Positions 32,586-63,441 of a DNA stretch of 64,000 nucleotides are shown piece by piece. Every line of letters starts with the position of its first letter. Within the stretch, counting starts at the first letter, position 1. The DNA comes from Salinispira sp. GTDB lineage: Bacteria > Spirochaetota > Spirochaetia > DSM-27196 > Salinispiraceae. The notes under the pieces were generated by a model, which saw nothing but the letters and a program-made list of their open reading frames with translations, had not been told where the DNA came from and ran no database searches. The translations under genes and the position numbers were made by a program. Location of the stretch: positions 32,001 to 96,000 of the forward strand of contig CBDDDG010000001.1 in the NCBI GenBank assembly GCA_965226555.1, in the 5' to 3' direction.

Positions 32586-32721
32586 ATAAAACAGCAAAGA
32601 CAGTAACGGCAGCCTGTCACAGAGGTGAATTCAACGGCGAAAGGCGGCGCAGGTATGGTTGAATTCGCAGTGGCGTCAAAAAGGACTTGAAATTATTCAA
32701 TTATAGTAGGATAGTATAAGC

Positions 32722-33222: not shown

Positions 33223-33234
33223 ATAAAACCATAA

Positions 33235-33304
33235 GAAACTTTTGCATTGATAAAGGTTTGCTACTGGAAATTGTGCAAGCACAATTTTCCAATGCAAAAC
33301 TTTC
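33235..33304. repeat. 70-bp palindromic element (extra left end + 54-bp unit)
   Basis: GAAACTTTTGCATTGA-TAAAGGTTTGC..GCAAAACTTTC; repeated at 35372-35441. Confidence 0.85.
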
Positions 33305-33334
33305 TTATGGTTAAATTCACACTGGCGTCAAAAA

Positions 33335-34586
33335 TGGGATATTAAGGTTTGAACAGACCCCACTTTGACCTATTATGCGATCATTTCTTCCGAGTGCCAA
33401 GCCCTCCATCGCTCAAGCGTCGGCCGTGTGAGCCGTTGCTCCATTATGATCGGCTTGAGCCGGAGAATATCACTATCCACATTGGTATTCCGCTGCCTCA
33501 AAAGATCCAGCGGAGTCCCTTTGCGGTAGGTGTTGAACCGCCGGTAATTGAAATCTATCTGATACTCCTCGGCTTCCTTAAGAAACTCATTGAGCTTTGG
33601 ATTCATCACCTGACTGTAGAACTCATCCTCAATGAGCCGGTGCGAGGACTCGACAGAACTGTTCCATGTGCACTGCCCGGGCGGAATACGCAGATACTCG
33701 ACACCCGCCTGTATGAGCGCCTGCTCAAACCCCGATGTTCGGGTTTTGCTCAGATGTCGAACGGTGAACTCTGCCCCGTTATCGGTCTGAACCGTTATGT
33801 CCTTGGCAAGGTCTCCGTCATGATTCCGCAGGTGCTCCAGCAGGTACTCGGCGAACAAGGTTGTTACCATACTGCTCTTCTCATTGGCGAAGGCGTACCA
33901 CAGAGCCCCTGTCGCCCGATCCCGGGCGGTTATCTGGTACTTCGGAACGTCTAAACACTTCTGAGAAAACCGCATAGCGGGAATGTCCGTCAGATACTTG
34001 ATATCAATCTGAATGCACTCGCCGAACTTCATCCTGTCGGTTACCTCCCGCAAATCTCTCTTGGGTAGCGCCTTCGGCTTCTTTGTTTTCTGCGCCCCTA
34101 TCTGCTTTAGCGTCTTGATAATCGTCGGCAGGCTGTACTTCCCGCCAACTTCCGTCTGCAACTGCTTTTGCACCTGAGTTCCAATGATTTTGTTGTGATT
34201 CCGATTCTTGGTCTGGGCAAGACTCTCGAGATGACACCGGTGCCCGAATTTCATCTTCATCGGATGATTGGTCGTGCCCCGCTTTTTGTCTTCAAGCCCC
34301 TCGCCGGATTCAAAGCGCCGAACCCACCGCCGCACCGTGTTGCGCGACACCTCGAACTCCCGAGCAGCCGCCTTGATCGAATGCTCCTGGGCATACCGAA
34401 CCATCCGCAACCGCCAATCATACATCGAAGCCGCCTGATACTTCCGAGACTTGAGATGATACTGAGAATATGTGATACTACTGTTCACTGTTTCCCTCCT
34501 TTTATGTTTTATACAACCCCCAGTGTATACGAATAACCTTCGTTTTACACTGGGGAGGAGGGGTCTGTCCAAAGGTTTATATCCCA
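33335..34586 (-). mobile_element. IS481-family element, copy 2 (transposase 33373-34488)
   Basis: Near-identical to 6843-8094. The 6-bp duplication CAAAAA is confirmed by the empty sister site at 35461-35480. Confidence 0.95.
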
Positions 34587-34631
34587 CAAAAAGGACTTGA
34601 AATTATTCAATTATAGTATGATAGTATAAGC

Positions 34632-35359
34632 ATGGAAACTCTCAGCATCATTCAGCTCATATTCGCATTTGGAGTTTTTACTCTGCTGAACATAGTAATT
34701 GCTCTTATTATACGGCCGTCTCAAAAGCAATTTGATGAAACTCGAGCGGAAAACAGGGAATCCATACAGGAATTTATGAAGCTGTCTCAAAAGCAGTTTG
34801 ATGAAACCCGAGCGGAAAACAGGGAATCCATACAGGAACTCAGGGAAACAATACAGGAATCTCTGAAACTGTCTCAAAAGCAGTTTGATGATTTCAAAAC
34901 AGAAACCCGAGAATCCATACAGGAATTTAAAACAGAAACCAAGGAATCCATACGAGAACTCAGGGAAACAATACAGGAATCTCAAAAGCAATTTGATGAT
35001 TTCAAAACAGAAACCCGAGAATCCATACAGGAATTTAAAACAGAAACCAAGGAATCCATACAGGAAATAAAAGGGGAAATGCGCGAGCTAAAGGCCGACA
35101 ACCGAGACATTAAACGTGGTCTGGATCATCTCATAGAAACTTTTGCATAGGAAAATTGCGCTTGCGCAATTTCCAGTAGCAAAAGTTTCCAATACGGGTT
35201 CTCTCATTTATATTCTTGATTCTCTCAAGGTATAGAAAGTTTTGCCACAGGCAAAACTTTGTCATGTTTTCATTAATTGCCCGTACTGACCATGAGCTTC
35301 AACTTTCGGGAGAAATTCACCATCCGCTGAAGAAAAAATCAGAAAGAGTATCTGGGTAA
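34632..35359 (+). pseudogene. Repeat protein copy C, truncated at 35150 by a cassette insertion
   Basis: Native 3' end resumes at 35262; native stop at 35357-35359. Confidence 0.8.
35136..35261. mobile_element. Composite mini-element: 54-bp palindrome + 45-bp cargo + 27-bp palindrome
   Basis: Absent from copies A and B; flanked by TCAT(A)/TCAT(G). Confidence 0.85.
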
Positions 35360-35371
35360 ATAAAACCATAA

Positions 35372-35441
35372 GAAACTTTTGCATTGATAAAGGTTTGCTA
35401 CTGGAAATTGTGCAAGCACAATTTTCCAATGCAAAACTTTC
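35372..35441. repeat. 70-bp palindromic element, second copy
   Basis: Matches 33235-33304. Confidence 0.85.
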
Positions 35442-35510
35442 TTATGGTTAAATTCACACTGGCGTCAAAAAGGACTTGAAATTATTCAATTATAGTATGA
35501 TATTATAAAC

Positions 35511-36295
35511 ATGGAAACTCTCAGCATCATTCAGCTCTTGTTCGCATTTGGAGTTTTTACTCTGCTGAACATAGTAATTGCTCTTATTATACGGCCGTCT
35601 CAAAAGCAATTTGATGAAACTCGAGCGGAAAACAGGGAATCCATACAGGAATTTATGAAGCTGTCTCAAAAGCAATTTGATGAAACTCGAGCGGAAAACA
35701 GGGAATCCATACAGGAATTTATGAAGCTGTCTCAAAAGCAGTTTGATGAAACCCGAGCGGAAAACAGGGAATCCATACAGGAATTTAAAACAGAAACCCG
35801 AGAATCCATACGAGAATTCAGGGAAACAATACAGGAATCTCTGAAACTGTCTCAAAAGCAGTTTGATGATTTCAAAACAGAAACCCGAGAATCCATACAA
35901 GAATTCAAAACAGAAACCAGAGAATCCATACAGGAATCTCTGAAGCTGTCTCAAAAGCAGTTTGATGATTTCAAAACAGAAACCAAGGAATCCATACAGG
36001 AAATAAAAGGGGAAATGCGCGAGCTAAAGGCCGACAACCGAGACATTAAACGTGGTCTGGATCATCTCATAGAAACTTTTGCATAGGAAAATTGCGCTTG
36101 CGCAATTTCCAGTAGCAAAAGTTTCCAATACGGGTTCTCTCATTTATATTCTTGATTCTCTCAAGGTATAGAAAGTTTTGCCACAGGCAAAACTTTGTCA
36201 TGTTTTCATTAATTGCCCGTACTGACCATGAGCTTCAACTTTCGGGAGAAATTCACCATCCGCTGAAGAAAAAATCAGAAAGAGTATCTGGGTAA
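35511..36295 (+). pseudogene. Repeat protein copy D, truncated at 36086 by the same insertion
   Basis: Native stop at 36293-36295. Confidence 0.8.
36072..36197. mobile_element. Composite mini-element, duplicate of 35136-35261
   Basis: Same sequence at the same position within the gene. Confidence 0.85.
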
Positions 36296-40795: not shown

Positions 40796-43440
40796 ATGAG
40801 AATCAAATTTATGGGGGTGGGGGGGTAACTCTCTTCGCATTCTGCTCAATTTTTATTGTATTGATGGCGGGATGTCCCATACCGGAACCGGTGGTGGAAC
40901 CAACGCCGGAACCAACTGTGCCGGGCACCATGGCTGCCCCAAGCCTCGAAGCGGGAGATGGGCAACTCATTGCGACATGGACTGCGCCAACAAATAACGG
41001 CGCCATTACCGGCTATGAGCTGCAATATAGACAATATAGCTCAGACGGCGGAACCACATGGTCGGATCCTCCTATTGAAGTCGCCGCGCCAACCTCAAAG
41101 ACCGTCATTACCGGCCTGAGCAACGGCAGCAGTTATGAAGTACAGGTACGCGCCATAGGCGCGCAGGGCGCAGGCGGCTGGTCGGACAGCGCATTAGCAA
41201 GCCCTGTTGCCGTTCCCGGTGCTCCCGACTTGCCAAGCCTCACCGTGGAAAATGAGCAACTTCGCATTTCATGGGTAGCGCCGACCAACACCGGCGGCAG
41301 CGACATTACCGGCTATGAGCTGCGCTACGCACTAAACAACTCACCCCTGCCGGACGAGCCGCAAATTAGCAACACAAGCAATACCTCTACCATTATGCAA
41401 CTGGAAATTGGCAGCCGCTACACCGTACAGGTGCGAGGCATCAACGCGCAGGGCAGGGGTCCGTGGTCAGAATCCGCAGCGAAAACATTCCCGCTCATTG
41501 CGGCACAGGTGCCGGAGGGTACGGAGGTGTTTGTCATTCTTTCGACTGTTGACAACGCAATTGCCAATGCCGCAAACCCAAACATTACTGTGGTTCCAGT
41601 TACTTCCCCAGCATCAACGGTTGTCTTGCCGACAATTGATGCGGCTACCGGAATTATTATGGTTACCGCAAGCACAAGCCCCGGAACATATACGGTATCG
41701 GGCGCAGACGGAGGAAGCGAACTGTTCACCCCCGAAAAGTTCTCTGTTACCCTGAGTCCTCCTACTAACGCTGAACTGAAAACAGCGGTAACTAATGGAA
41801 TATCAAACTGGGGACAAACTGCCGACCTCAACTACATTCTTACTACGGCAATAACGGACATGTCCGAAGTGTTCAAAGATAAAACCGCATTCAATGGCGA
41901 TATCTCGGGTTGGACTGTCAGTTCGGTAACGGATATGTCGGAAATGTTCCGTGGCGCAGACGCATTCAATCGTGATCTTAATAATTGGACTGTCAGCGCG
42001 GTAACAGATATGTCGGGGATGTTCAATAACGCAGACGCATTCAATCGTGATCTTAATGGCTGGACTGTCAGCGCGGTAACGGATATGTCGGAGATGTTCC
42101 GTGGCGCACGCGCATTCAATGGAAATATCTCGGGCTGGACTGTCAGCGCGGTAACGGATATGTCGGGGATGTTCAATAACGCAAACGCATTCAATGGCGA
42201 CATTTCCGGCTGGACTGTCAGCTCGGTAACGAATATGTCCGATATGTTCCGTGGCGCAGACGCATTCAATGGCAATATCTCGGGCTGGACTGTCAGCGCG
42301 GTAACGGACATGTCGGGGATGTTCAACGGCGCAGGCGCATTCAATGGCGATATCTCGGGCTGGACTGTCAGCGCGGTAACGGATATGTCGGAAATGTTCA
42401 ACGGCGCAACCGCATTCAATCGTGATCTTAATGGCTGGACTGTCAGCGCGGTAACGGATATGTCGGAAATGTTCAACGGCGCAACCGCATTCAATCGTGA
42501 TCTTAATGGCTGGACTGTCAGCGCGGTAACGGATATGTCGGGGATGTTCTATGGCGCAAACACATTCAATGGCGATATCTCAAGCTGGACTGTCAGCGCG
42601 GTAACAGATATGTCGTCGATGTTCAGGAACGCAAACTCATTCAATGGAAATATCTCGGGCTGGACTGTCAGCGCGGTAACGGATATGTCGGGGATGTTCA
42701 GTGACGCAGGCGCATTCAATGGAAATATCTCGGGTTGGGATGTCAGCGCGGTAACAGATATGTCCGATATGTTCCGTGACGCAGACGCATTCAATCGTGA
42801 TCTTAATAATTGGAATGTCAGTAAGGTAACGGATATGTCCTATATGTTCATTGACACAAACACATTCAATGGCGATATCTCAAGCTGGAATGTCAGTTCG
42901 GTAACGGATATGTCGGGGATGTTCACTGCCACAAGCGCATTCAATGGCAATATCTCGGGATGGGATGTCAGTAAGGTAACGGATATGTCGGGGATGTTCT
43001 TTTCCACAGGCGCATTCAATGGCGACATCTCGGGTTGGGATGTCAGTAAGGTAACGGATATGTCGGGGATGTTCGCTATCGCAACCGCATTCAATGGCGA
43101 CATCTCGGGCTGGGATGTCAGTAAGGTAACGAATATGAACAGTATGTTCCTTTTTGCAAGCGCATTCAATGGCAACATTTCCGGTTGGAATGTCAGTTCG
43201 GTAACGACTATGCAGGAGATGTTCTTTTTCGCAAGTGCATTCAATCAGAATCTTACTGCATGGGGCGGGACAGATGCAGGGAGCTTACGGCGTGATCCTA
43301 ATGATAATAGCAAATATGGAGTAACGGTAACGAATATGTTTACGAGTTCCGGCGTAGATACGAATACGGACGGGTCGGATACGTCTAAGCCTACGGGCGT
43401 GGGTGTTCCCAATTGGTATACTGAGATTATTGCCTATTAA
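40796..43440 (+). CDS. Surface lipoprotein with 2 FN3 domains and 19 DUF285/BspA-type 25-aa repeats; frameshifted in a signal-peptide G-tract
   Basis: GAGGAG RBS and ATG 40796; G5-T-G7 at 40813-40825 then TAA. One extra G gives MRIKFMGVGGVTLFAFCSIFIVLMAGC in frame with 40861-43440. Confidence 0.85.
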
Positions 43441-47182: not shown

Positions 47183-47880
47183 AGCAGAATCCTCCGCGGC
47201 ATATTGGTATTATTATGGATGGCAACGGCCGCTGGGCGCAAAGTCGGGGACTTCCCCGTACGCAGGGGCATCAGGAAGGCTTGGTTGCAGCCAAATCAAT
47301 TGTTAAGGCAGCCCGCTTTGCAGGTGTTTCATACATCACACTGTATACTTTTTCTACTGAGAACTGGAAAAGAACAAAGGAAGAAGTTGCTTTTCTCATG
47401 GGGCTGATAAAAAAAAATCTCCGAAAAGAATACCAATTTTATAAGAGCAATGGTATTCGTGTTGTACATTCCGGCGATATTTCCTCACTTCCGGGAGAAA
47501 TTCAGAATGAAATATGTCTGGTTGAGGAAGAGACAGCCGGTTTTTCATCGCTCATTGTGAATCTGGCAATAAACTATGGCGGAAGAGATGAGATTCTGCG
47601 GGCATGCAGGAAGGCTCTGGAAAGTGGGGTTGCTCTTGATAATGTCGGTGAGCAGGATATCAATAGATATCTGGATCAGCCGATGATTCCTGATCTGGAT
47701 CTGGTAATCCGTACGGGCGGAGAACAGCGCCTGAGTAATTTTATGCTGTGGCGATCTTCCTATGCGGAACTGTATTTCACTGAAACACTGTGGCCCGATT
47801 TTTCTCCCGATGAGTTCAATGGTATACTGGAATGGTTTCTGAGCAGAACACGGCGTTTTGGAGGCGGTAATGAACACTGA
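47179..47880 (+). CDS. uppS: Undecaprenyl diphosphate synthase
   Basis: HIGIIMDGNGRWA, FSTENWKR, RTGGEQRLSNF. Confidence 0.97.
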   Translation: MKQNPPRHIGIIMDGNGRWAQSRGLPRTQGHQEGLVAAKSIVKAARFAGVSYITLYTFSTENWKRTKEEVAFLMGLIKKNLRKEYQFYKSNGIRVVHSGDISSLPGEIQNEICLVEEETAGFSSLIVNLAINYGGRDEILRACRKALESGVALDNVGEQDINRYLDQPMIPDLDLVIRTGGEQRLSNFMLWRSSYAELYFTETLWPDFSPDEFNGILEWFLSRTRRFGGGNEH

Positions 47881-48796
47881 TAGTGCCAGCAAGGGGCGCA
47901 TGGGCGATCCGGATGCGCAGCCTCCGACCAGCCACGGACGCAATTTTTTTCAACGAATCATTCTTTTTATTATCTCTGTGCCCGCAATTTTTGTGCTTGT
48001 CAGCCTTGCCCCGGAAAAGGGGCACTGGCCACTCAATATCACGCTCATTCTCATTTCCATTCCCTGCGCCTTTGAGGCGAGCAGGCTTTTTGCCATGAAC
48101 CCCCACAAGACAGCTCACAGGACATTTGGAATTGTTGTCAACAGCATTGCCTATCCGGTGGTTTCATTTTTGTGGGTTCTGAATGTTATTGAAACACGCC
48201 TGTTGCTTCCCGCCTATATGGCATTGGTAATGAGTGTCATGTTTGTTCAGGTCTTCAATCAACAGCATACGCTGCATAAAATTTCCCGAAACATCGGCAA
48301 GCATCTTGCAATCATAGCCTATCCCAGCCTTTTTATTGCTCATCTCATCATGATCAGTAAAATACCCGGTGCCTCGCAGCTCTATATTGTTCTTCTTCTG
48401 GGAGTGATATTAAATGATACTATGGCCTTTCTCTCGGGAAAGCTGTATAAGCGCTATCATACCTATCCGACAGCGTTGAGCCCGAATAAGACCACCGCAG
48501 GTTTCATTGTTGGTTTTATATTTAGTCCAATTGGTTTTCTCATTGGATATTATATGTTTCCGGAACTCTTCCCCGGGGGGGTACCCGTTGTTCTGATACT
48601 CGGGCTGATGGTTGGCTTTACCACCATCAGCGGCGATCTTATTGAATCGGGCTTGAAGCGTTCAGCCCGGCGCAAGGATTCAGGAGAGGTCATTCTCGGC
48701 CGCGGAGGAATGTTGGACAGTCTTGACAGTATTCTCTATTCGGCGCCGATAGTATTTTATGTGTACCAGCTTACGAACGGTATCTGGGTTATCTAG
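47870..48796 (+). CDS. cdsA: Phosphatidate cytidylyltransferase
   Basis: SPNKT, GDLIESGLKR..KDSG..GRGGMLDSLDS. Confidence 0.95.
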   Translation: MNTDSASKGRMGDPDAQPPTSHGRNFFQRIILFIISVPAIFVLVSLAPEKGHWPLNITLILISIPCAFEASRLFAMNPHKTAHRTFGIVVNSIAYPVVSFLWVLNVIETRLLLPAYMALVMSVMFVQVFNQQHTLHKISRNIGKHLAIIAYPSLFIAHLIMISKIPGASQLYIVLLLGVILNDTMAFLSGKLYKRYHTYPTALSPNKTTAGFIVGFIFSPIGFLIGYYMFPELFPGGVPVVLILGLMVGFTTISGDLIESGLKRSARRKDSGEVILGRGGMLDSLDSILYSAPIVFYVYQLTNGIWVI

Positions 48797-48810
48797 GAAG
48801 GGAGAAATAC

Positions 48811-50301
48811 ATGGCCATACTATATGGGATTATTGGACTTGGGCTTGTGGTCATTATTCACGAAGCGGGGCATTTTTTTGCGGCGCGCGCCTGCGGGATC
48901 GATGTTGAAGTATTTTCAGTCGGCTGGGGCAGGAAACTCATTGGGTTTAAGAAGGGAAACACGGAATACCGAATTTCAATGATTCCCCTTGGCGGCTTCG
49001 CAAAAATGAAGGGTGAATCTGCGTATAGAGATGCCATTAGCGAGGGGCACACGCGCATTCAGCCTGAGCCCCATTCTTTTTTCAGCGCAACACCTCTGCA
49101 GAGAATTTTTGTGGCGGCAGCCGGCCCGGGAATGAATCTCCTTTTTGCGGTGATATGCTTTTCAATCATTAATCTTGTTGGATATGAATATGCGAGCTTC
49201 CCAAATAAAATTATTCTCAGCGATGATTTTCCTCAATACTATACCCTGCCGACTGATGAACCGGATGCACAGGCACAGGCGGATGCGCAGGCGCAGGCGG
49301 ATGCGCAGCCTCCGACCAGCCCCGGACGCATGGGCGAGCAGGAGGCGCAGCCTCCGACCAGCCCCAGCCCTGCTGCGCGGGCGGGTCTTCGCAGCGGGGA
49401 TCATATCATTGCAGTGAACGGCATTGAAATTGAGAATTTCAACAGGCTCCAGCAGGAAATTTCTCCCCGAGCCCTCGAAGAAGTTACCCTGAGTATTGAC
49501 CGCGGCGGAACGCTGATGCAAACTACCGCATCACTCACACTCGATAATGAGAGCGGTTCAGGTATTCTTGGAGTCTTCCCCTATATTGAGCCAATCATTT
49601 CCCAACCCCAGGAGGCGCAGCCCGATGAAACCGCTTCCTTCAGTCTTCAGTCGGGCGACAAAATTGTTATGATCAACGGACAGAATGTGAATCATATCTA
49701 CGACATACAGATGGTTCTGGACAGTATTCCCCTTAGCAGAGAACAGTCATTTGTTCAGTTGAATATAGAACGGAATGGTTCACAGCGCACTATTCAGCAT
49801 CCCCTCCTGTATGAAGAGGGAGAATTTTCACTGGGTTATTATTTTCAGCAGGATACATACAAAAAACAGTCGGAGGGCCTTCTGAAAGCCATTTCCAGGG
49901 GATGGAAGGAAACAATTTCGGTACTTACGACAACCGTTAAGGGAATCGGTCTCCTTTTCAGAGGACTTGACGCTAATGCCGCATTATCGGGTCCCCTTCG
50001 TATTACCGTCCTTGTCGGAGAGGTTACCGCCCAGAGCTTACAAAGCGGAATTGCCGAGGGTCTGCGCGCCTTTTTTTATCTTCTCAGCCTTATTAGTGTT
50101 GCGCTTGCGTTTGGAAATCTCCTGCCCATACCCATTCTTGACGGCGGACAAATTCTCATATCACTTGTTGAATTATGTAAACGATCACCCGTATCTCCGA
50201 AAATGTTTCTCCGTTATCAAACTGTCGGAGTTATCATCATCATCGGACTCATTGCGTTTGTATTGTTTAATGACCTGCTGTTCATTTTAGGCAGGGCATG
50301 A
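48811..50301 (+). CDS. rseP: RIP metalloprotease RseP
   Basis: HEAGH, PDZ domains, NLLPIPILDGG. Confidence 0.96.
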   Translation: MAILYGIIGLGLVVIIHEAGHFFAARACGIDVEVFSVGWGRKLIGFKKGNTEYRISMIPLGGFAKMKGESAYRDAISEGHTRIQPEPHSFFSATPLQRIFVAAAGPGMNLLFAVICFSIINLVGYEYASFPNKIILSDDFPQYYTLPTDEPDAQAQADAQAQADAQPPTSPGRMGEQEAQPPTSPSPAARAGLRSGDHIIAVNGIEIENFNRLQQEISPRALEEVTLSIDRGGTLMQTTASLTLDNESGSGILGVFPYIEPIISQPQEAQPDETASFSLQSGDKIVMINGQNVNHIYDIQMVLDSIPLSREQSFVQLNIERNGSQRTIQHPLLYEEGEFSLGYYFQQDTYKKQSEGLLKAISRGWKETISVLTTTVKGIGLLFRGLDANAALSGPLRITVLVGEVTAQSLQSGIAEGLRAFFYLLSLISVALAFGNLLPIPILDGGQILISLVELCKRSPVSPKMFLRYQTVGVIIIIGLIAFVLFNDLLFILGRA

Positions 50302-52592
50302 AGCAGGGCATGAAGATGCGCGGTGAAGGGTTCATCAGGATCATACGATTTTCTCCCATTGTTCTCCTGTTGATTTTGATTTTTGCGCAACATTACATTA
50401 CTGCTTCTCCTGAGGGTTTTCTCCTTACGAATCAGACTCACGATGGCATTGTTACTGCCATTGCAATAGATGCTCAGGGGCAGACAGGATTTTCCGGCGA
50501 TAGTCGGGGGGTGATCCGTGTGTGGGACTCCAATACACGGACAATCATTCAGCTTCTCCGCATTGGTACGGATCCCATTGTCAAACTTGCGGCGCATCCT
50601 GAAAAAACCGAAATTGCGGTAGTTGTGGAACAGGATGCCGGTTCATACCGCCTGTCGATATGGGATTGGAAAAGCAGAAGTATTCGATCCACCCACAATA
50701 TAGATAATTTTCCTTCATTTATGACCTACAGTCCGCAGGGGAATTTTCTTGCCCTTTCCTTTCCGCAGCGGCCTTCGCTGTACTTTTATGATACCGAACA
50801 ATCTCTGAAAATACCCTGGCTTGAAGAGGGCTTCGGCATTGTTACCTCATTTGTTATATCCAATAGCGAAATCCGATTAATGGCCTACAATGCCGCTGAG
50901 GGAAGCATCAAGTATGTTGAGCTTGAGACCGCTGTCCTCGCGCATGAGGTTCAGACAGAAAGAGGATTTAATCATCTTACTCTGCTCAAAAATCGACGCT
51001 ATGCGCTCGGATATAAAAACCGGGAACTATATCTTATTGATCTATTAAACGGCGCCATCCTCGCACGCAGGGCGAGCGGTGAAATTGGGGCTATTCTCCC
51101 CTTCAATAGTGATAAAAACCAATTCTATGTCGTTGAACAGAGAGATCGGGAGCATCAGCTCAGAATAGTCAACGTGAACATCGACAATGTTTTTTCCATA
51201 ACAATACAAACGAGAACTGCTGTTACTATCAGGGGAATAGATATCTCCTACGCGGCGAGCGGAGGAAGAATTTTTCTTACCCGTAACAGGCATGAAACAG
51301 CGCTGCTTGAAAACAACAAAAATCATATTCTCAGCGTGGTTGAAACTCAGAAGATTCAGAATATTCTCATTCAGGATGAATGGCTGTACCTGCAGACCGC
51401 TGCGGGAATGAGCCGAATTCTGCTTGCGCTGCTGCAGGATCCTGTTCAGCAGAATATATACATTGCGCCGGAGGAGGGCGAAGTTGTAGAGGAGATGAAA
51501 CTGCCGTTTTCAAACCCCGCAGGCATTACCGGACTCGGTAACGGAAAATTTATTACCTGGCCGCGCAACGAAATTGGGCATATCTATATATATGATGATG
51601 TGCAGGCAGAGTTCAGGCAAATTCCCATTCCCCTACGCGCCCCAATAAAGCATGCGCATTCCGGCAACAGATATATCAGTATCCTCGATTATTCTGACGG
51701 CCTGTATCTTTTGGATAGGCTCACATATGAGCAGGTATTGATCTATGAAAACCTGGGAATGAACGATGTCATTGAACTCTCGGATGGACATATTGTTATT
51801 GGAAAAAATAAGACAAATTTTCTTAATACCAGCCTCATTGAGGTTGATACGGTCACTGCCGAAACGAGCATCCGTCACGGCGATGATGATGTTGTTCTTG
51901 CTCTGGAACCATACCCGCGGGGCTTTTTTACACTTGGGATCGAAAATTTGCAGGAATCTTTTACAACAATTCGGCAATTCAGTGAGAACAATGCAGGGGA
52001 AGGGGAACCGCTGGAACCTCCGGAACCGCCGCGTCTGATCATGCGCTTTGCGGCCGACAGCGAGGGGAACGATTTCCATTTTATTCCAGAAACCGAAACT
52101 CTGGTAGTCAGTAATGGGCTTTCAGGATTACGAATGTATCGGAACAGGAGCCTAGAAACCCTGAAAGCCGATAATGATTTTCCCCTGAAAATATACGGAA
52201 ACAAACAGTTCATCATTACCGTAAATATCGATGGAAGTACTGCGGTATGGGATCTCAGTACAAAACAATTAAAATACCGGCACATTATCCTATCGGATAA
52301 TACTATTGTGCAATTATTTTCCAATTATTCGTACATTTCTCTGAATGCCGATTCTCCCAGCGATGATGGTACTGGGAGCGGTGGGAATGCTGTGAGCGGC
52401 GTGAGTGCCGGGAGTGGGAATGGAAATTCTCGGGAGATCAATTTTTCCCGCATTCTCAGTATACCGACCGGAGCGGATACCGGACGCTCGGGCGAGCAGG
52501 AGGCGGAGTCTCCGCCCAGCCCCGGGGGCGCGGGCGATCCTGTGTTTAACGTTCCAGTGCAACAAACTCTGCGTAGGGCGGGAGAAAATTGA
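50298..52592 (+). CDS. WD40/beta-propeller exported protein
   Basis: Signal peptide; HDGIVTAIA..SGDSRGVIRVWD. Confidence 0.7.
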   Translation: MKQGMKMRGEGFIRIIRFSPIVLLLILIFAQHYITASPEGFLLTNQTHDGIVTAIAIDAQGQTGFSGDSRGVIRVWDSNTRTIIQLLRIGTDPIVKLAAHPEKTEIAVVVEQDAGSYRLSIWDWKSRSIRSTHNIDNFPSFMTYSPQGNFLALSFPQRPSLYFYDTEQSLKIPWLEEGFGIVTSFVISNSEIRLMAYNAAEGSIKYVELETAVLAHEVQTERGFNHLTLLKNRRYALGYKNRELYLIDLLNGAILARRASGEIGAILPFNSDKNQFYVVEQRDREHQLRIVNVNIDNVFSITIQTRTAVTIRGIDISYAASGGRIFLTRNRHETALLENNKNHILSVVETQKIQNILIQDEWLYLQTAAGMSRILLALLQDPVQQNIYIAPEEGEVVEEMKLPFSNPAGITGLGNGKFITWPRNEIGHIYIYDDVQAEFRQIPIPLRAPIKHAHSGNRYISILDYSDGLYLLDRLTYEQVLIYENLGMNDVIELSDGHIVIGKNKTNFLNTSLIEVDTVTAETSIRHGDDDVVLALEPYPRGFFTLGIENLQESFTTIRQFSENNAGEGEPLEPPEPPRLIMRFAADSEGNDFHFIPETETLVVSNGLSGLRMYRNRSLETLKADNDFPLKIYGNKQFIITVNIDGSTAVWDLSTKQLKYRHIILSDNTIVQLFSNYSYISLNADSPSDDGTGSGGNAVSGVSAGSGNGNSREINFSRILSIPTGADTGRSGEQEAESPPSPGGAGDPVFNVPVQQTLRRAGEN

Positions 52593-53877: not shown

Positions 53878-54330
53878 TTATTCTCCTTCCTTCAGGACGC
53901 TCACTGCGAGAATAGCTTCTTCATCATTATACAGATGAATGGTGATATTATAGTTTCCAAGATATTTCAGCGTATGCCCCGGAATATCAATTTTTTTCCG
54001 TTCAACAGTAATGTCTCTGGCTTCGAGGGCATCAATAATCATGTGCGCAGTTACGGCTCCGAAGAGTTTACCCTTATCTCCCGCGGGCATACGAAATTCA
54101 AGGGGAGTATCGGCAATACGCTCTTTTACCGAAAGTGCCTGTCGGCGCTTTTCTTCCTTATTCTTTGCGATGAGATTTTTTCTGCTTTCGAAAAAAGACA
54201 GATTTGCCTTATTGTACATGGAGACCAGTTTCTTCGGCAGGAGATAGTTACGCGCATAGCCTGCGGATACTTCAAGAATATCCCCCTCCTCACCAAGCTC
54301 TGCAATATCAGTGTTCAGGATCACTTTCAT
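53878..54330 (-). CDS. rplI: 50S ribosomal protein L9
   Basis: GYARNYLLP, GKLFGAVT. Confidence 0.97.
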   Translation of the reverse strand: MKVILNTDIAELGEEGDILEVSAGYARNYLLPKKLVSMYNKANLSFFESRKNLIAKNKEEKRRQALSVKERIADTPLEFRMPAGDKGKLFGAVTAHMIIDALEARDITVERKKIDIPGHTLKYLGNYNITIHLYNDEEAILAVSVLKEGE

Positions 54331-55217
54331 ATTTTTTCCTCGTGTGTATTTTTATTCAATTGTGGAATCCAGATTGATGCAATACCTAAAATAACTAGCC
54401 CTAGGATAAAGATTGCATTTACTCCGGGCACCAAAATAGCCAATATCAGCAATGCTGGTATAAAGGGTTTTTTCCCCAATAAACCGGCCAGAATACCAAA
54501 ACCTTTAAGGAAGTATAGCAGGGCAGCAAAAAGAAAACAATTCCACCCAATGTAGGAAAGGGGAATAATGGTAAGAATTTCTCCTGCCATGAGTACTATT
54601 GCAGATACAATAAATACCCATATGAACCATTCTGGAAAGTTGAGGCGAATCCGCAGTAATGATGATACACCGCTGCCCAATGCTCGTCCAAGTCCGTATC
54701 CGAGAATGAGAGACAGGGTTGAGCTGAGTACGATTGCGCGCAGGGCCAGATCGAATATGAAGTTGATCTGCTGTTCAAGACCCTGACGCGGTACGATTGC
54801 TGCAAAAAGTTCTTCAATTTCTGGACTTCCTTCCAGCGCGGAGATGATGCCTGTGATCAGCGTATCCCGTCCAGTAATGCCTAATACCAGTATCGTGCCA
54901 AGGGTACAGAAAAGAGATGCAATGATAAGCCTCTTCCACCCTTCGTTGAACTGAAGCATATTAAGCGCAGCAAGTCCCGCAAGCAGCCCGAGGGGAATGA
55001 GTATCTCCTGTCCAATACCCCGAAAAACGGAAAGAAGCAGGCCAGTGCACAGGGAAATGACAGAACTCAGCAGAAATTCCTGTCGTCCATACTTCGACCA
55101 TGTGAATTGAAGAGGCGCAAGGTAGAAAATACTCAGTGAGTACATGAACAATCCGCTGAAAACTCCGGCAATTACGGTGGGAATACATATGCGGGGGGGT
55201 GGAATCTCAATTTTCAT
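54327..55217 (-). CDS. DUF2232/YybS-like membrane protein
   Basis: Multi-TM protein at the conserved position between rpsR and rplI. Confidence 0.75.
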   Translation of the reverse strand: MKIEIPPPRICIPTVIAGVFSGLFMYSLSIFYLAPLQFTWSKYGRQEFLLSSVISLCTGLLLSVFRGIGQEILIPLGLLAGLAALNMLQFNEGWKRLIIASLFCTLGTILVLGITGRDTLITGIISALEGSPEIEELFAAIVPRQGLEQQINFIFDLALRAIVLSSTLSLILGYGLGRALGSGVSSLLRIRLNFPEWFIWVFIVSAIVLMAGEILTIIPLSYIGWNCFLFAALLYFLKGFGILAGLLGKKPFIPALLILAILVPGVNAIFILGLVILGIASIWIPQLNKNTHEEKI

Positions 55218-55221
55218 AATC

Positions 55222-57072
55222 TCAGCCCATTGGCAGGAGGCCAAGGTAACGTGCCCGCTTTATTTCTCTTACCAGAAGGCGCTGATTCTTTGCTGAGGTT
55301 CCGGTATTTCTCCGGGCAAGGATGCGTCCCTTTTCGGTAACGAATCGGCGGAGTATATCCGGCTGTTTATAGTTGATAGTAAGGTTCTGTGTTTTGATCC
55401 TATCGACTTTTTTCTTGAAAAAAAGCTTTCCGGTTCTGCGCTTCATTGGTCGGCGCATGTCACGGTCGTTGTTTTCGACGCTGGTAGTGTCTCTGTTGGC
55501 CGGGGATTTGCCTTTGTCGGGCGGAGTAGTGTCAGCCTTTTCCTGCTTGGGTGCTTCCTGCTTGGGCGCTTCCTGTTTAGGTGCTTCCTGTTTAGGTGCT
55601 TCCTGCTTGGGCGCTTCCTGCTTGGGCGCTTCCTGCTTTGGCGCTTCTTGCTGAGGCGTTTCCTGCTTGGGCGCTTCCTGCTTGGGTGCTTCCTGCTTGG
55701 GCGCTTCTTGCTTGGGCGCTTCCTGCTGAGGCGCTTCTTGCTTGGGTGCTTCCTGCTTCGGTGTTTCTTGCTTTGGCGTTTCCTGCTTGGGTGCTTCCTG
55801 CTTGGGCGCTTCCTGCTTGGGCGCTTCTTGCTGAGGCGTTTCCTGCTTGGGCGCTTCCCGCTTCTTAGGTACTACCTTCTTCTTTGGTGTTTCTTGCTTG
55901 GGCGTTTCCTGCTGAGGCGTTTCTTGCTTTGGCGCTTCTTGCTTGGGCGCTTCCCGCTTGGGTGTTTCTTGCTTGGGCGCTTCCCGCTTTGGCGTTTCCT
56001 GCTTCGGTGTTTCTGGCTTTGGCGCTTCTTGCTTCGGTGTTTCTGGCTTTGGCGCTTCTTGCTTCGGTGCTTCCTGTTTAGGTGCTTCCTGCTTGGGTGT
56101 TTCTTGCTTGGGCGCTTCCTGTTTAGGTGCTTCCTGCTTGGGCGTTTCTGGCTTAGGCGCTTCCCGCTTCTTAGGTACTACCTTCTTCTTTGGTGTTTCT
56201 GGCTTTGGCGTTTCCTGCTTGGGCGCTTCTTGCTTGGGCGCTTCCTGTTTAGGTGCTTCCTGCTTGGGCGCTTCCTGTTTGGGTGCTTCCTGCTTGGGCG
56301 GAGTGCTGTCTTTGTCGGGCGGAGTAGTGTCAGCCTTTTCCTGCTTGGGTGCTTCCTGCTGAGGCGCTTCTTGCTTTGGTGTTTCTTGCTTGGGTGCTTC
56401 CTGCTGAGGCGCTTCCTGTTTAGGTACTACCTTCTTCTTTGGTGCTTCTTGCTTGGGCGTTTCCTGCTTGGGTGCTTCTTGCTGAGGCGTTTCCTGCTTG
56501 GGTACTACCTTCTTCTTTGGTGTTTCTTGCTTGGGCGCTTCCCGCTTGGGCGCTTCCCGCTTGGGTGTTTCTGGCTTAGGCGCTTCCTGTTTAGGTGCTT
56601 CCTGCTGAGGCGCCTCCTGTTTAGGTGCTTCCTGCTTGGGCGCTTCTTGCTTGGGCGCTTCCTGTTTAGGTGCTTCCTGCTTGGGCGCTTCCTGCTTTGG
56701 CGCTTCTTGCTGAGGCGCTTCCTGCTTGGGCGCTTCCCGCTTCTTAGGTACTACCTTCTTCTTTGGTGCTTCCTGCTTGGGCGCTTCCTGCTTGGGTGCT
56801 TCCCGCTTGGGCGTTTCCTGCTGAGGCGTTTCCTGCTTTGGCGCTTCCTGCTTGGGCGTTTCCTGCTTGGGCGCTTCTTGCTTGGGCGCTTCCTGTTTAG
56901 GTGCTTCCTGCTTGGGCGCTTCCTGCTTTGGCGCTTCTTGCTGAGGCGCTTCCTGCTTGGGCGTTTCCTGCTTGGGCGTTTCCCGCTTGGGCGTTTCCTG
57001 CTGAGGCGTTTCCTGCTTGGGTGTTTCTGGCTTTGGCGTTTCCTGCTTAGGTATGTCTGGTTTTTCGTTCAT
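55222..57072 (-). CDS. rpsR: 30S ribosomal protein S18 with giant repeat extension
   Basis: C-terminus [52 protein letters not shown] before ATG 57072; lies after ssb. Confidence 0.9.
55540..57050 (-). repeat. 15-bp degenerate tandem repeat encoding P(K/Q)(Q/R/P)E(A/T), roughly 90-100 units
   Basis: Seen directly; punctuated by KKKVVP and two KADTTPPDK blocks. Confidence 0.95.
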
Positions 57073-57083
57073 ATGATCCTCCA

Positions 57084-57548
57084 TTAAAAGGGAATATCGT
57101 CATCAAAACTGCTGTCAAATGATTCTGGTGATTCTGGCGCAGCAGTACTTCCATTGCCGGTATTGGCATTTGTTTGTTGATGTGCGCGTTGATCGTTTCG
57201 TTGATCGTTTCGAGAAGAACCGCCGATGAGTTGAATATCGTTTACAAAAATTTCAACCCTGCTGCGGTTCTGTGATGTCTGCTTATCCTGCCAGCGATTC
57301 TGCTGAAGCGTTCCCTGAAGTGCAACCTGCTTTCCTTTCAGCAGATAACGCTGAAGAGCGTCGGCTCTGCGCCCCAGCATAACGGCATCGAAGAAATGGC
57401 TTTCTTCAACCCATTGGTCGCCGTCTTTTCTGCTTTGCGTATTCGCAATGGAAAAACGGACAATTGCGGTTCCTGATGCGCTGTATTTTGCTTCCGAATC
57501 GCGGGTAAGGCGGCCGATAATTAATACGGAATTAATGTCTGTTACCAT
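57084..57548 (-). CDS. ssb: Single-stranded DNA-binding protein
   Basis: IGRLTRD; DDDIPF tail. Confidence 0.97.
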
Positions 57549-57559
57549 AAGTTTCTCCT

Positions 57560-57841
57560 TTATTCGTTGCAGCGGATTACAAGAATGCGGATTAAATTCT
57601 CAATGAGAGCGACATTCTTTTCAATTTGATGAGCCTTGTCAGGCTCCATGGTAAATTTGAATACAAGATAGTGTGCATCAAGCTGATTTTTTATGGGATA
57701 GGACAGCATCCGAACACCCATGTCATGTTCCGAGATTGATTCTGCCCCCAGTTCTGTAATGTGGGAAAGAATCTCTTTTTTGCCGCTGGTGAACAGATCT
57801 TCTTCAGACCTGAATACACAGGCTGCTTCATAGGTTCGCAT
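57560..57841 (-). CDS. rpsF: 30S ribosomal protein S6
   Basis: MRTYE..MGVRMLSYPIK; AAGGAGG RBS. Confidence 0.93.
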   Translation of the reverse strand: MRTYEAACVFRSEEDLFTSGKKEILSHITELGAESISEHDMGVRMLSYPIKNQLDAHYLVFKFTMEPDKAHQIEKNVALIENLIRILVIRCNE

Positions 57842-58053
57842 GTTTCCTCCTTGCGGACCAATCGGCGAAGCTTCAGACCTCACCGAAATTGACTATCCTG
57901 TATCCATCCTCTTTTCAGGTCAGGAACAGCCAGAATAGTAAAGAGACAGGAATATCATCCTGCAATATATATCGTGTATTGAATGATTATTACACAATAA
58001 GAATCATCCTACTACAGAAAAAATAGTGTGTCAATTCATTGTCAAGTTATTTT

Positions 58054-58169
58054 TGGGAAATAAACACGGATGGAAACAGTGAACAGCAGTATCACATATT
58101 CTCAGTATCATCGCAAGTCTCGGAAGTATCAGGCTGCGGCTGCGATGTATGATTGGCGATTTAATATCA
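58054..58169 (+). mobile_element. Internally deleted, degenerate IS481 derivative
   Basis: 58072-58158 matches the start of the IS481 transposase (GGAAACAGTGAACAG..GATTGGCG); IR-like TGGGAAATAAAC and TTAATATC at the edges. Confidence 0.7.
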
Positions 58170-58223
58170 TTAATTACAATTGCCTGATCTATTTTTTCTT
58201 TCACAATTATACCTTATCATCAC

Positions 58224-59414
58224 TCATTTCAGTGCATTGATAATTTCCACCACCTGCTTTACTTTCTGCCCAGACCCCTGCCTGCTTATAAGCAGGGCAT
58301 CTTCTGTTTCTACAACGATTAGGTCGTCTATGTCAATAAGCGCGATCTGTTTTTTCGGATGCTGTTGAGTAATGACCATGTTTCGCTGCGCATCAATGTG
58401 GATCGGCGTGGCGGTATGGGGTGTATTGGGCGGCTGCGGAGCCGAAGCCTGCGGAGCTGAAACAAACAGGTTATCCCCGGATGTCCGCGTAAGGGCATTT
58501 TCATTTCCGCTTTCGGGGCTGCGGTAGTACTCGTACAGGGAATCTAGGCTGCCGAGGTCGCTCCAGCCGAAACTGCAGGGCAGTACGGTAATGCGGTTAC
58601 TGTGCTCCATGACTGCGTAGTCGATGGAGACCGATGGAATTGCCTCCATGAGCTCAGTCTGCGGCTGCCAGAATTGACGCCCGGGCTGGCTGTTGGGCGA
58701 GGCGGCGGGCGGCGGAGCGAATGCAGTGCCGGCACTATCTGCCTGAACAGCGCGGGCGCAGGCATCATGAACTTCGGGGGCATGAAGGCTCAGTTCTTCC
58801 AGCAGAACGCCTGCTTTGAAGCAGAACATGCCGCTGTTCCAGTAATAGTTGCCGGCCCGCAGGTACTCGGCGGCAGTTGCCTCATTGGGTTTTTCACGGA
58901 ATGACCTGACCGCATAGGAGTTCTGCGGGGAGCTGACCGCGGTATCCGCTTCAATGTAGCCGTAGCCTGTTTCCGGGCGGGTCGGAGTAATTCCGAAGGT
59001 TACGATACGTCCGGCTCCTGCTATATCGATGGCGCAGGTAAGCGTTTCGCAGTAGGCTTTCACCCGAGTAATTATATGATCCGAGGGAAGCACAATGAAT
59101 ATATCGTGCGGATCGGCGAGCATGGCTGCAAGCGCAATGGCAGGAGCAGTGTTTCGGGCAATCGGCTCAATGATGGAGAAATACTCGTCAATGCCCAGCC
59201 TCTGCAGCTGCTCACATGCCAGAGTAGTCTGCTGACTGTTTGCGGCGATCATGAGCTGCGATGTTAGCATGCGGTTCCTTTCCACCGTGCGTTCGAAGAG
59301 CGTCTGCCCGGGCAGAATGGGGGCAAACTGCTTCGGCAGCTCAGGCCGGGAAAGCGGCCAGAGGCGGGTGCCCATGCCGCCGCAGAGTATGAGCGTGATA
59401 ACTTTACCGATCAT
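58224..59414 (-). CDS. manC: Mannose-1-phosphate guanylyltransferase
   Basis: GGMGTRLWPLSR..PKQF, RNTAPAI, WNSGMF, SIDYAVME, WSDLGS. Confidence 0.93.
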   Translation of the reverse strand: MIGKVITLILCGGMGTRLWPLSRPELPKQFAPILPGQTLFERTVERNRMLTSQLMIAANSQQTTLACEQLQRLGIDEYFSIIEPIARNTAPAIALAAMLADPHDIFIVLPSDHIITRVKAYCETLTCAIDIAGAGRIVTFGITPTRPETGYGYIEADTAVSSPQNSYAVRSFREKPNEATAAEYLRAGNYYWNSGMFCFKAGVLLEELSLHAPEVHDACARAVQADSAGTAFAPPPAASPNSQPGRQFWQPQTELMEAIPSVSIDYAVMEHSNRITVLPCSFGWSDLGSLDSLYEYYRSPESGNENALTRTSGDNLFVSAPQASAPQPPNTPHTATPIHIDAQRNMVITQQHPKKQIALIDIDDLIVVETEDALLISRQGSGQKVKQVVEIINALK

Positions 59415-60495: not shown

Positions 60496-61305
60496 TCAAT
60501 CATCATCACTACCGCCGCCCAACTCCAACTGAGGCACCGACTGAACGGCATTCCCTGCAATGCCCTTATTCAGAACAAGTAGGTGCCGAGCTTCGCGCAG
60601 AAAGGGTACTTCAAGGGGGAGGAGCTGGTGCCCCTGTGGGAGCGGGCCGCCGAAATTTTCAAGAATTGTATTTTTGCGCCCTGTGTATGCGGCTATCCAG
60701 CCGCCGGAGTTCAGCAGGCGCATCTGTAGCCGACATTGTTCGGGGGTGAAGGGGCGGAAGGCGCGGGATGTTACTACATCGAAGCGCCGTTCGGCGAGGT
60801 CTTCAGCGCGCTGTTCATGTATGTGTACCATGTTTTTCAGTCCGAGGATTGGGATGATGTTATGCAGGAATGCGCATCGCCTACGCTGCTTTTCAATGAG
60901 GTGCATGCGAAATTCCGCGCGGGTGCCGACTTCTGGGGGGGCGCCGGCTTTCGCGCTGTCGCGAAATTCTGGGGAGGCGCCGGCTTCTGTGGAGGCGCCG
61001 GCTTCCATATGGTCGCGGAATGTCAGCGCGAGTACAATGCCCGGGAGACCTGCCCCGCTCCCTAAGTCGGCAACGGAAATCTTCCTGCGGATATTCAGAA
61101 GATCGCCGAACCAGAAAAAGGCTGCTGCTGAATCGAGAATGTGCCTGACCACAAGCTCTCTTTCCGTGGCTTTTACAAGTCCGGCGCGGGAATTCCAGAG
61201 CAGAATTTCATCAATGTAACGTTTGAGAGATATGAACAGCGAGTCCGAGTATAGAGCGAGTTGGCGAAGTCCATGTGCGAGCAGGCGCTCATTGTTCTGA
61301 GTCAT
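60496..61305 (-). CDS. rsmG: 16S rRNA m7G527 methyltransferase
   Basis: RHILDS, DLGSGAGLPGI, RAE, VTSRAF; downstream of mnmG. Confidence 0.93.
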   Translation of the reverse strand: MTQNNERLLAHGLRQLALYSDSLFISLKRYIDEILLWNSRAGLVKATERELVVRHILDSAAAFFWFGDLLNIRRKISVADLGSGAGLPGIVLALTFRDHMEAGASTEAGASPEFRDSAKAGAPPEVGTRAEFRMHLIEKQRRRCAFLHNIIPILGLKNMVHIHEQRAEDLAERRFDVVTSRAFRPFTPEQCRLQMRLLNSGGWIAAYTGRKNTILENFGGPLPQGHQLLPLEVPFLREARHLLVLNKGIAGNAVQSVPQLELGGGSDDD

Positions 61306-61380: not shown

Positions 61381-63441
61381 TTATATTTCAAGTGTAGTGG
61401 TATTGAGCATGGATTCGCTCAGTTTTTTCTGAGATGGGCTCTGATCGGCGCGGCGGGCTGCTGCAACCATAAGAATGGCAAGGTCGGAGCTGCGGACGCC
61501 GCTGATGCGCCCCGCCTGCCCTATTGAAAGGGGGCGAATGTTCTTGAATTTTTCACGGGCCTCATTGGACAAGCCCCGTACTCCATCATAATTGAAGCTC
61601 TGAGGAATTTTCATATTCTCCATCTTGGTAAAGCGGAGAATCTGTTCTTCCTGCCGAGCGACATAGCCTTCGTATTTTATATCAATTTCAACTTGGCGGA
61701 GCCATTCAAGGGGATGGTCACTGAGGAGATCAGGATCAATCTGCATAAGATTTTCAATGGATACGGTCGGATTTTTCAATATCTGCATAAATGTTTTTCC
61801 CGGAAGCCGAGCGGAATTGCCGGTGGGCGGTCTGGCAGAATGGCGCGGGGTGGAAATGCTCATGGCCGACTGCGCTCTGTCGAGTTCATGCGCCGAGAGG
61901 CGGCGGTGGGCGAGGAGTTCCTTAATTGCCGCTATGCCCTGTTGCTTGTCTCTGAATTGTTGCCAGGCGGCAGCGCTGTGCAATCCGATATCCCGCCCGC
62001 GGGCGTACAGGCGCATGTCTGAGGAATCGTGGCGGAGGCTGATGCGATGTTCCGCGCGTGAAGTGAACATTCGGTAGGGTTCCTTTGTGCCAAGGGTTAC
62101 CAAATCGTCTATGAGTACGCCGATGTAGGCCTCTGCCCGTGAGAGGATGAGAGGGTCGCGTCCTCTCAGGCTCAAGGCGGCGTTAATACCTGCCATAAGC
62201 CCCTGGGCGGCGGCTTCTTCATATCCGCTTGTTCCGTTTGTCTGCCCGGCAATGTACAGGCCCCGGCAGAGTTTTGCCTCAAGACTGGGATACAGCTGGC
62301 TCGGATCAATATGGTCGTATTCAACTGCATAGCCCGGGCGCATGATGACGGCATGCTCCAGTCCGGGGATGCTGTGAATAAAATGTTCCTGAACATCCTC
62401 CGGGAGCGATGTGGAAATACCGTTCAGGTACATCTCCTTTGTTTCAAGTCCTTCCGGTTCTACAAAAATCTGATGACGTTCCCGCTGGGGAAATTTTACG
62501 ACCTTATCTTCTATGGACGGACAGTAACGCGGGCCGACTCCTTCTATGGCGCCGGAAAAAAGGGGCGAGCGGTGCATGTTTTCGTTAATGATTCGATGTG
62601 TTTCAGGAGTTGTGAAGGTGATGTAACAGGGCTCATTCGGGCGGTTGGGCCGTTCACGGGTGAAGGAGAAGGGGAGCATTTCATCGTCTCCAAACTGCGG
62701 CTGCATTTTGCCAAGGTCGAGGCTGTCGCGGTGAACCCGGGCGGGGGTGCCGGTTTTCATGCGGCCCATGCGGAAGCCGAGCCCGCAGAGGGTGCTTTCC
62801 AGACCCCGTGCGGCAGGTTCGCCAATGCGCCCCGCGCTCGCGCTGAACTCCCCAATGTGAATTTTACCGTTCAGGAAGGTTCCTGTTGTAAGTACGACCC
62901 GGGATGCGCTCATGCGCCGGCCCCGTTCGGTTATAACTCCGCGGATCGCGCTCCCATCAACATCCTGCTTGCTCCCGCCCGCATTCTGTCCATCAGCATC
63001 CTGCTTGCTCCCGCCCGCATTCTGTCCATCAGCATTCTGTCCGTCTGAATCCAGCAGAAAGTCGATGACCGTATCCTGAAAAAGCTGAAGATTTTTCTCG
63101 TTTTCCAGCGTTTTTTTCGCTTCTATCTGGTAGCGCATTTTGTCGGCCTGCGCCCGCGGCGCCTGCACCGAAGGTCCCTTGCGCCGGTTGAGCACCCGAT
63201 ACTGAATCATGGTCTTGTCGATGAGCCTGCCCATTTCTCCGCCAAGAGCATCAATTTCCCTGACCATATTGCCCTTCGCGAGTCCGCCAACGGCAGGGTT
63301 GCACGATAATTTTCCAATGCAGTCGAGGTTCATGGTAATGAGAAGGGTGCGGAAGCCCAGCCGTGCCGAAGCAAGCGAGGCTTCAATGCCCGCGTGACCG
63401 CCGCCGACAACAATAATGTCAAAATCAGTATTCATCTTCAT
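61381..63441 (-). CDS. mnmG: tRNA modification enzyme MnmG/GidA
   Basis: [34 protein letters not shown]. Confidence 0.98.

Follow-up and report, generated by a model that had tools for sequence, protein, structure and literature searches.

Each ribosome is made with a single copy of protein S18, one of its smallest proteins. The window studied here (the whole stretch of 64,000 nucleotides from a Salinispira sp. contig) carries an rpsR gene that appears to encode an S18 of 616 amino acids, which raises the question of whether such a protein is real, is made, and is carried by the ribosome. The preliminary description of this locus had claimed an S18 of about 616 aa with a PKQEA-type arm, read from an ATG led by a ribosome-binding site at the normal rpsF-ssb-rpsR position. 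These claims held: a single stop-free frame runs through the repeats into a PF01084 domain, a Shine-Dalgarno (SD) sequence precedes the start, and the adjacent ssb and rpsF are identified by domain matches of their own (Table 1).

Table 1. Features of the rpsR region and of the infB locus. Coordinates are window positions, except for the two IF2 rows, which lie outside the window on another contig.
Feature	Coordinates	Strand	Details
rplI (L9)	53878..54330	-	150 aa, normal size
DUF2232/YybS-like membrane protein	54327..55217	-	Downstream of rpsR; E 0.002, under cut-off
rpsR CDS	55222..57072	-	616 aa; 620 aa from ATG 57084
S18 core, cysteine-free	55234..55386	-	PF01084, 72.8 bits versus cut-off 21
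Linker and basic pre-core segment	55387..55512	-	Internal Mets 55458 and 55446
Tandem array	55513..57051	-	15-bp unit, 1,539 bp, 513 aa; 87 P[KQ][QRP]E[AT] units and 8 interrupting blocks
Internal copy of 13-residue block	56311..56349	-	Exact match to array-end block 55513-55551
Shine-Dalgarno GGAGG	57078..57082	-	5 nt upstream of ATG 57072
Antisense shadow frame	55648..57087	+	479 aa, RFLLG repeats; not taken as a gene
ssb	57084..57548	-	PF00436
rpsF (S6)	57560..57841	-	PF01250; 93 aa, normal size
Candidate operon promoter	58006..58034	-	Upstream of rpsF; sigma-70-like, 10/12; consensus match only
IF2	G000:C21:364947-368975	+	1,342 aa
IF2 array	G000:C21:367504-368967	+	18-bp unit, ~81 copies, 1,464 bp

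One open frame joins a repeat array to the S18 core

Read on the minus strand, the frame 57084..55222 comprises 620 codons from its first ATG, which overlaps the ssb stop codon (TAATG). Starting at ATG 57072 gives a 616-aa protein of 69.9 kDa, and the repeats follow from either start. Pairing of the GGAGG with the genome's own anti-SD sequence yields -9.3 kcal/mol at ATG 57072, within the range calculated for ssb, rpsF and dnaB (-8.8 to -11.2 kcal/mol). The two internal methionines, for which no obvious ribosome-binding site had been seen, indeed have no usable SD (-0.3 kcal/mol at 55458 and -3.8 kcal/mol at 55446). The gene order, rpsF-ssb-rpsR-DUF2232-like-rplI-dnaB, places rpsR as in the rpsF-ssb-rpsR(-rplI) operon layout outlined in PMC10931766. 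No promoter-like site was found on the minus strand inside the array, and a search of 54000-58500 against Rfam was empty (0 matches). Across the array, 5-18 stops interrupt four of the five remaining frames; the codon-aligned antisense frame is open, and we rejected it as a real gene because the variable third positions of the sense codons are its first positions. The genome (2.98 Mb in 26 contigs, 93.5% complete, 6.7% contaminated) was checked for a second rpsR, and the gene described here was the only match among 26 scored candidates.

Judged by its sequence, the protein is a bS18 of the cysteine-free type. PF01084 spans roughly the last 55 residues, and the rRNA-binding core residues YK, QR and EIKRAR are retained. 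The GKILPRRITG motif carries the private changes K587R, P590A and I593N (620-aa numbering), shared by none of the 68 order-level loci compared, some of which come from the same genome; the same columns vary in other phyla. The preliminary description had also pointed to missing zinc-binding cysteines. It is true that the protein has no cysteine and is not of the Zn-binding (C+) type, but the cysteine-free K(V/I)D form is common to all 67 order-level loci covering that column, and we therefore dropped the absence as a special trait. Since this form is the norm in the order, it gives no reason to regard rpsR as an alternative paralogue. Private changes affect 7 of the 65 core columns, compared with a background of 165 in 4,294 (3.8%) over 27 frames of the tuf-S10-spc-alpha region, with Spirochaeta africana as the reference. 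A decaying rpsR was considered and rejected, as S19 (7/88) and L14 (10/122) are nearly as changed and no core difference between populations is listed.

Anatomy and composition of the arm

The arm of about 540 residues and the ~1.5 kb of heterogeneous 15-bp repeats reported earlier are both borne out. Up to the first internal Met, the arm consists of 7 leading residues, the array (residues 8-520) and 18 linker residues. The array is made of 95 blocks of 35 DNA types, all with lengths that are multiples of 3: 87 five-residue units, 5 KKKVV-containing blocks, two 13-residue blocks, and one DSTP. The two 13-residue blocks are exact copies at an offset of 798 bp, a trace of block duplication, and the inner one also occurs in contig record 2 of sequencing run X1. 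After the 18-residue linker the sequence becomes basic and D/R-rich, similar to the short N-terminal tail that Salinispira S18 carries.

The stretch of 538 residues that precedes the first internal Met contains 20% Pro, 13 hydrophobic residues and no aromatic ones, with a fraction of charged residues (FCR) of 0.41, a net charge of +0.02 per residue and a kappa of 0.055. This composition supports a disordered arm; a single-sequence AlphaFold2 model, which is weak evidence, shows the arm without secondary structure (mean pLDDT 35, low even in the core). By standard coil scaling the arm would have a radius of gyration of 6.8 nm and a contour length of 194 nm. The arm had no Pfam match at E up to 1, and the ESM Atlas yielded no usable match. 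Two units in tandem were found nowhere else in the six frames of all 26 contigs. We thus rejected an origin from a dispersed hairpin element or from another gene, there being no second unit copy in the genome, and an RPE-like dispersed palindromic or mobile insert fits no better, as the unit tandem is unique to the rpsR locus.

Evidence for translation and for the assembly

Among single changes from the consensus unit, 7 of 9 synonymous ones are seen in the S18 array, against 4 of 36 others (4/33 non-synonymous and 0/3 stops; Fisher p=2e-4). The bias persists within transitions (5/5 synonymous versus 2/10 others), and mean pairwise differences between units are 0.14, 0.05 and 0.36 at codon positions 1, 2 and 3. 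The array of IF2, described below, lacks a synonymous bias, so that the bias in S18 is not a general property of arrays in this genome. Taken with the sole good SD and 95 of 95 in-frame blocks, these patterns make it almost certain that the arm is translated, and they demonstrate, at the level of sequence, that selection maintains its reading frame and residue make-up.

The preliminary description named two outcomes that would overturn it, an expansion introduced by assembly and a start at an internal Met. The latter is now unlikely, given the SD energies and the synonymous bias. To assess the former, we compared 54300-55570 (core, linker and array edge) with sequencing runs. Run X1, which may be the source sample, covers 54300-55562 in one contig with zero differences, and another X1 contig, 200 bp long, agrees in register with 56331-56530 within the array at the pieces checked. 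Runs X4 and X5, from a second study, differ at 27 of 1,039 and 21 of 894 bases (about 2.3-2.6% divergence), with no difference listed within 55222-55458. Their contigs cross the core and linker and then continue for 77 letters. The 30 of these that are shown read as in-frame repeat units, and their DNA is absent from this genome. This sister population thus has different units at the array junction, within those 77 letters beyond the linker, and these in-frame units of its own on the same core place an arm in an independent population and point to turnover since the split. In addition, no exact repeat inside the array exceeds its longest one of 104 bp and every 127-mer is unique, which makes the array resolvable in assembly. 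By these comparisons the arm is not an assembly artefact; its full length, 1,539 bp, comes from the assembly alone.

S18 length in relatives

Comparison with relatives sets 616 aa against 92-101 aa for the members of the family. An S18 match was found in 38 of 40 relatives, with open frames of up to 207 aa, and the 27 of 30 relative loci that gave a start encode S18 proteins of 92-193 aa. Across the order, 90 of 99 genomes matched, with S18 frames of 101-219 aa; four order-level open frames above 243 aa are other frames and not S18. In a sample of the phylum 390 of 401 genomes matched, and frames at the 150 places listed reached at most 259 aa. Protein searches, which were word-limited and biased toward spirochaetes, returned 16 candidates of 338-1,078 aa, among them one S18 (P0001, 393 aa), as well as other long S18 proteins of 307, 301, 248, 226 and 214 aa. 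The S18 described here is the longest found in these searches, more than 1.5 times the longest other.

Exact S18 matches to the relatives' loci place Salinispira pacifica in the family and Spirochaeta africana in the order, and their S18 proteins (94 and 99 aa) share the core type and the variable tail with the one here. The tails of usual spirochaete S18 proteins (92-193 aa in all) are D/R/G-rich, unlike the P/K/Q/E/A arm. P0001 has its own 11-12-residue Pro/Thr/His repeat, which is unrelated to this arm, and P0088 has a 50-residue duplication. In a tree of S18 cores (82 rows and 66 columns, mostly unresolved), the 7 rows of at least 200 aa need 6 changes, at least 3 of them required by the starred branches; an equally low number was reached in 68 of 500 shuffles. 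Long S18 arms have evolved in spirochaetes on more than one occasion, and the tree, although too weak for a count of origins, suggests several.

P0001, P0088 and P0095 form a separate spirochaete group with the core motif HKVDKIRL and S18 proteins of 301-393 aa; their arms are mutually unrelated, and two of them lie on contigs of 1.15 and 1.88 Mb. Another long entry, P0024 (204 aa), lies on a 1.2-kb contig and consists of a Bacteroidota-type S18 repeated exactly in tandem; it is probably an assembly artefact. The long acidic tail noted earlier on S2 is indeed long, but it is not special, and a link to the arm is not supported: the open frame of 327 is among the shorter ones, full-length relatives having 303-485, and the tail is ordinary for the order. 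We therefore discarded S2 as a companion oddity.

A second giant array in IF2

The genome contains 92 arrays with periods of up to 45 bp, 84 of them with a period divisible by 3, and two exceed 650 bp: those of S18 and IF2. They are also the only two low-complexity runs of more than 260 aa in the genome, and they are nearly equal in length (1,509 and 1,464 bp). The IF2 array encodes a 495-aa Ala/Thr/Lys C-terminal tail with a net charge of +39, beginning within the normal short tail and finishing just before the stop. Its third codon positions are almost invariant and its second positions vary; 1 of 14 synonymous changes is seen versus 10 of 40 others (p=0.25). IF2 was matched in 38 of 41 genomes, relatives' frames reach at most 1,076 aa, and in 16 of 16 relative loci examined no more than about 30 residues follow the last domain. 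The 495-aa IF2 tail as a companion of the S18 arm is new here.

Pfam was searched with 20 of the 92 array-bearing frames. Other genes identified include those for PNPase, FlaA, TatD, UvrD and a type I restriction subunit, whose arrays measure 72-214 bp; among the housekeeping-type genes of these 20, the next-longest array has 183 bp. The S10-to-S11 ribosomal proteins of the S10-spc-alpha cluster, S21, L27, S16 and IF3 are of normal size. It is striking that two of two giant arrays fall on 30S initiation components in a genome of ~2,600 genes, although this is one genome and the category was chosen afterwards.

On the contig of IF2 the gene order is rearranged, with rbfA following rplU-prp and not infB (G000:C21:374483-376468). 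The rpmA gene for L27 is on another contig (C10:458665-458901), before an Obg-like gene, and its 91-aa frame appears to start at MAHKK, without the N-terminal extension on which Prp normally acts.

Lineage and genome context

Private changes in the tuf-S10-spc-alpha region are more numerous in family member G001 (208, or 4.8%) than in this genome and number 34-56 (0.8-1.3%) in three other family members; topology may contribute to these counts. G001 has a normal S18 and IF2 despite its longer branch, so that a long branch is insufficient and the arm is not predicted from drift alone. Loss of mismatch repair or RecA was rejected as a cause, as the mutS, mutL and recA frames are open.

Within the window, in-frame tandem duplications occur in RsmG (60907-61029), a GidA/MnmG-like gene (62954-63039) and RseP (49262-49308), and such small duplications are part of a genome-wide habit. 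A short dispersed element, GRMG...AQPPTS in translation, lies in frame inside a CdsA-like gene, RseP and a WD40-like protein (47858-52592); the pattern occurs 17 times in the six-frame translation of the genome. The genome is rich in FN3, ankyrin-like, WD40-like, TPR-like and 25-residue-repeat proteins, most of them labeled by eye, and these dozens of repeat and surface proteins suggest host association. Examples in the window are TPR-like 102-bp repeats (29610-30472), a surface protein with FN3 and 25-residue repeats (40861-43440), and clusters of small coiled-coil proteins with 33-bp repeats (32096-35937).

Comparison with known systems

The S18 described here is a real, extreme variant of a protein for which repeat extension is already known from grass plastids, where chloroplast bS18c carries an N-terminal heptapeptide repeat, SKQPFRK (PMC2695775). 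The two share a short tandem repeat at the N terminus of S18. The plastid extension, however, is about 19-55 residues in 1-7 copies and is basic and aromatic, whereas the bacterial arm exceeds it roughly tenfold in length (~540 residues, 87 units) and is charge-neutral and free of aromatic residues; the basic-aromatic seven-residue motif does not occur in it, and there is no sign of homology. According to a preprint, the N terminus of bS18 becomes ordered on mRNA as initiation proceeds, the extension of the plastid protein reaches into the cavity of the platform, and repeat growth in grass plastids is proposed to be adaptive (bioRxiv 10.64898/2026.07.03.736309). bS18 forms the 30S platform together with bS6 (PMC10931766) and lines the anti-SD pocket (PMC10618245, PMC7797042). 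Disordered terminal segments that coat the ribosome surface and are missing from structures have been described for 36 solved ribosomes, with the longest fragments in mitoribosomes; S18 and repeats go unmentioned in that survey (bioRxiv 10.64898/2026.06.18.733196). A literature search over titles and abstract openings, with subscription papers mostly outside its scope, returned no bacterial S18 of this size and no C-terminal repeat tail on IF2.

Near-identical units of the PKQEA/PKVEA type serve as linkers in unrelated surface and secreted proteins, among them a TbpB-domain lipoprotein and lectin, G5 and LRR proteins, where they may act as extended spacers. Similar Pro-Lys-Glu-type spacers are found in titin PEVK and neurofilament tails. 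Most of these proteins are extracellular or eukaryotic, and they contain no S18 domain; the likeness of the arm to them is one of composition and probably convergent.

Tolerated growth or selected length

We lean, if not strongly, toward the view that the arm is a disordered, charge-balanced bristle on the 30S platform, tolerated under drift, the length of which is not needed. The arm occupies what is normally the short, variable, low-complexity N-terminal tail of spirochaete S18, and it would have grown there by local slippage and unequal exchange. The working S18 of the cell would then be made with a disordered N-terminal arm of ~540 residues, the core binding S6 and 16S rRNA as usual and the basic segment beside it keeping the usual mRNA contact, while the arm reaches out from the platform, close to where mRNA exits, as an expanded coil of ~7 nm radius, an inert entropic bristle. 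Its length would be tolerated because the lineage is under weak selection and accumulates in-frame repeats, and the IF2 tail would be the same process at another exposed terminus. The exact copies of interrupting blocks, the neutral-looking IF2 array and the unrelated arms elsewhere favor drift; the old unit diversity and the cost of synthesis favor function. Several observations weigh against a bristle. Ribosomal proteins total about 7,300 aa, and the arm adds ~7% to their mass, which is large for a neutral trait; with recA, mutS and mutL open, in-frame loss of units should be easy; and both giant arrays, of nearly the same length, are in 30S initiation components. It is doubtful, though a serious possibility, that the arm was selected for its length, working as a spacer or tether where mRNA leaves the ribosome, and belongs, with the IF2 tail, to a lineage-specific change in initiation. 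It might keep ribosomes, RNA polymerase or nucleases apart or block 100S pairing, and the Lys-rich IF2 tail would hold IF2 on RNA or ribosomes. The confinement of long low-complexity runs to S18 and IF2, the absence of the tail from all 16 relatives' IF2 loci and the normal size of IF3 and the other ribosomal proteins seen are as expected under selection. So are unit types that are old, their third-position diversity (0.36) far exceeding the population split (~0.025), and the mRNA contact of the bS18 N terminus with the plastid growth proposed as adaptive (bioRxiv 10.64898/2026.07.03.736309). Yet the arm, with no aromatic residue and almost no net charge, is unlike the plastid motif, the IF2 array has no synonymous bias, and arms of other spirochaetes share no sequence with it. 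Much of its length may also be recent, since the interrupting blocks are exact DNA copies, and the S18-IF2 pairing is a category picked post hoc in one genome. The reading in the preliminary description of a translated, disordered Pro/Lys/Glu arm is supported, on a real and sole S18, and of the two explanations offered there tolerated expansion is better supported than a functional tether.

Two further readings would give mature ribosomes a smaller S18. The arm could be translated and then cut off or trimmed, which we regard as improbable. Trimming would explain why the arm is tolerated, and a gene for the cysteine protease Prp is present, though L27 appears to start directly at MAHKK; but that gene needs no link to S18, no L27-type cleavage motif was recognized in the linker by eye, and the cost of synthesis remains after cutting. 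It is very unlikely that S18 is instead made from an internal Met (74-78 aa) with the array untranslated, or that the array is shorter in vivo and inflated by assembly. Two Mets do lie just ahead of the core, exact proteins of 616, 620, 78 and 74 aa are absent from a collection of 15 billion, and the total length is known from the assembly only. Set against these points are the lack of an SD at the internal Mets and of a minus-strand promoter-like site in the array, the synonymous bias in the S18 frame, the resolvable repeat structure, and the in-frame units at the junction in the sister population.

Implications

Proteins of this kind may be hidden by start-site callers and short-read assemblies. 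We think it unlikely that the lineage has rebuilt initiation with two matched disordered arms of ~500 residues, neutral on S18 and basic on IF2; if it has, each ribosome would bear a polymer arm of ~190 nm contour, with the IF2 arm at the end that binds fMet-tRNA, and the arms would set ribosome spacing, tether a factor or organize translation in the cell. On any reading, a second tail of ~500 residues in the same genome makes function versus drift of disorder at the ribosome surface testable, and the arm offers a test object that can be grafted or trimmed to follow initiation, polysome spacing and hibernation. At six times the size usual in its family, this S18 is a gauge of how much disordered cargo the 30S platform tolerates near the mRNA exit.
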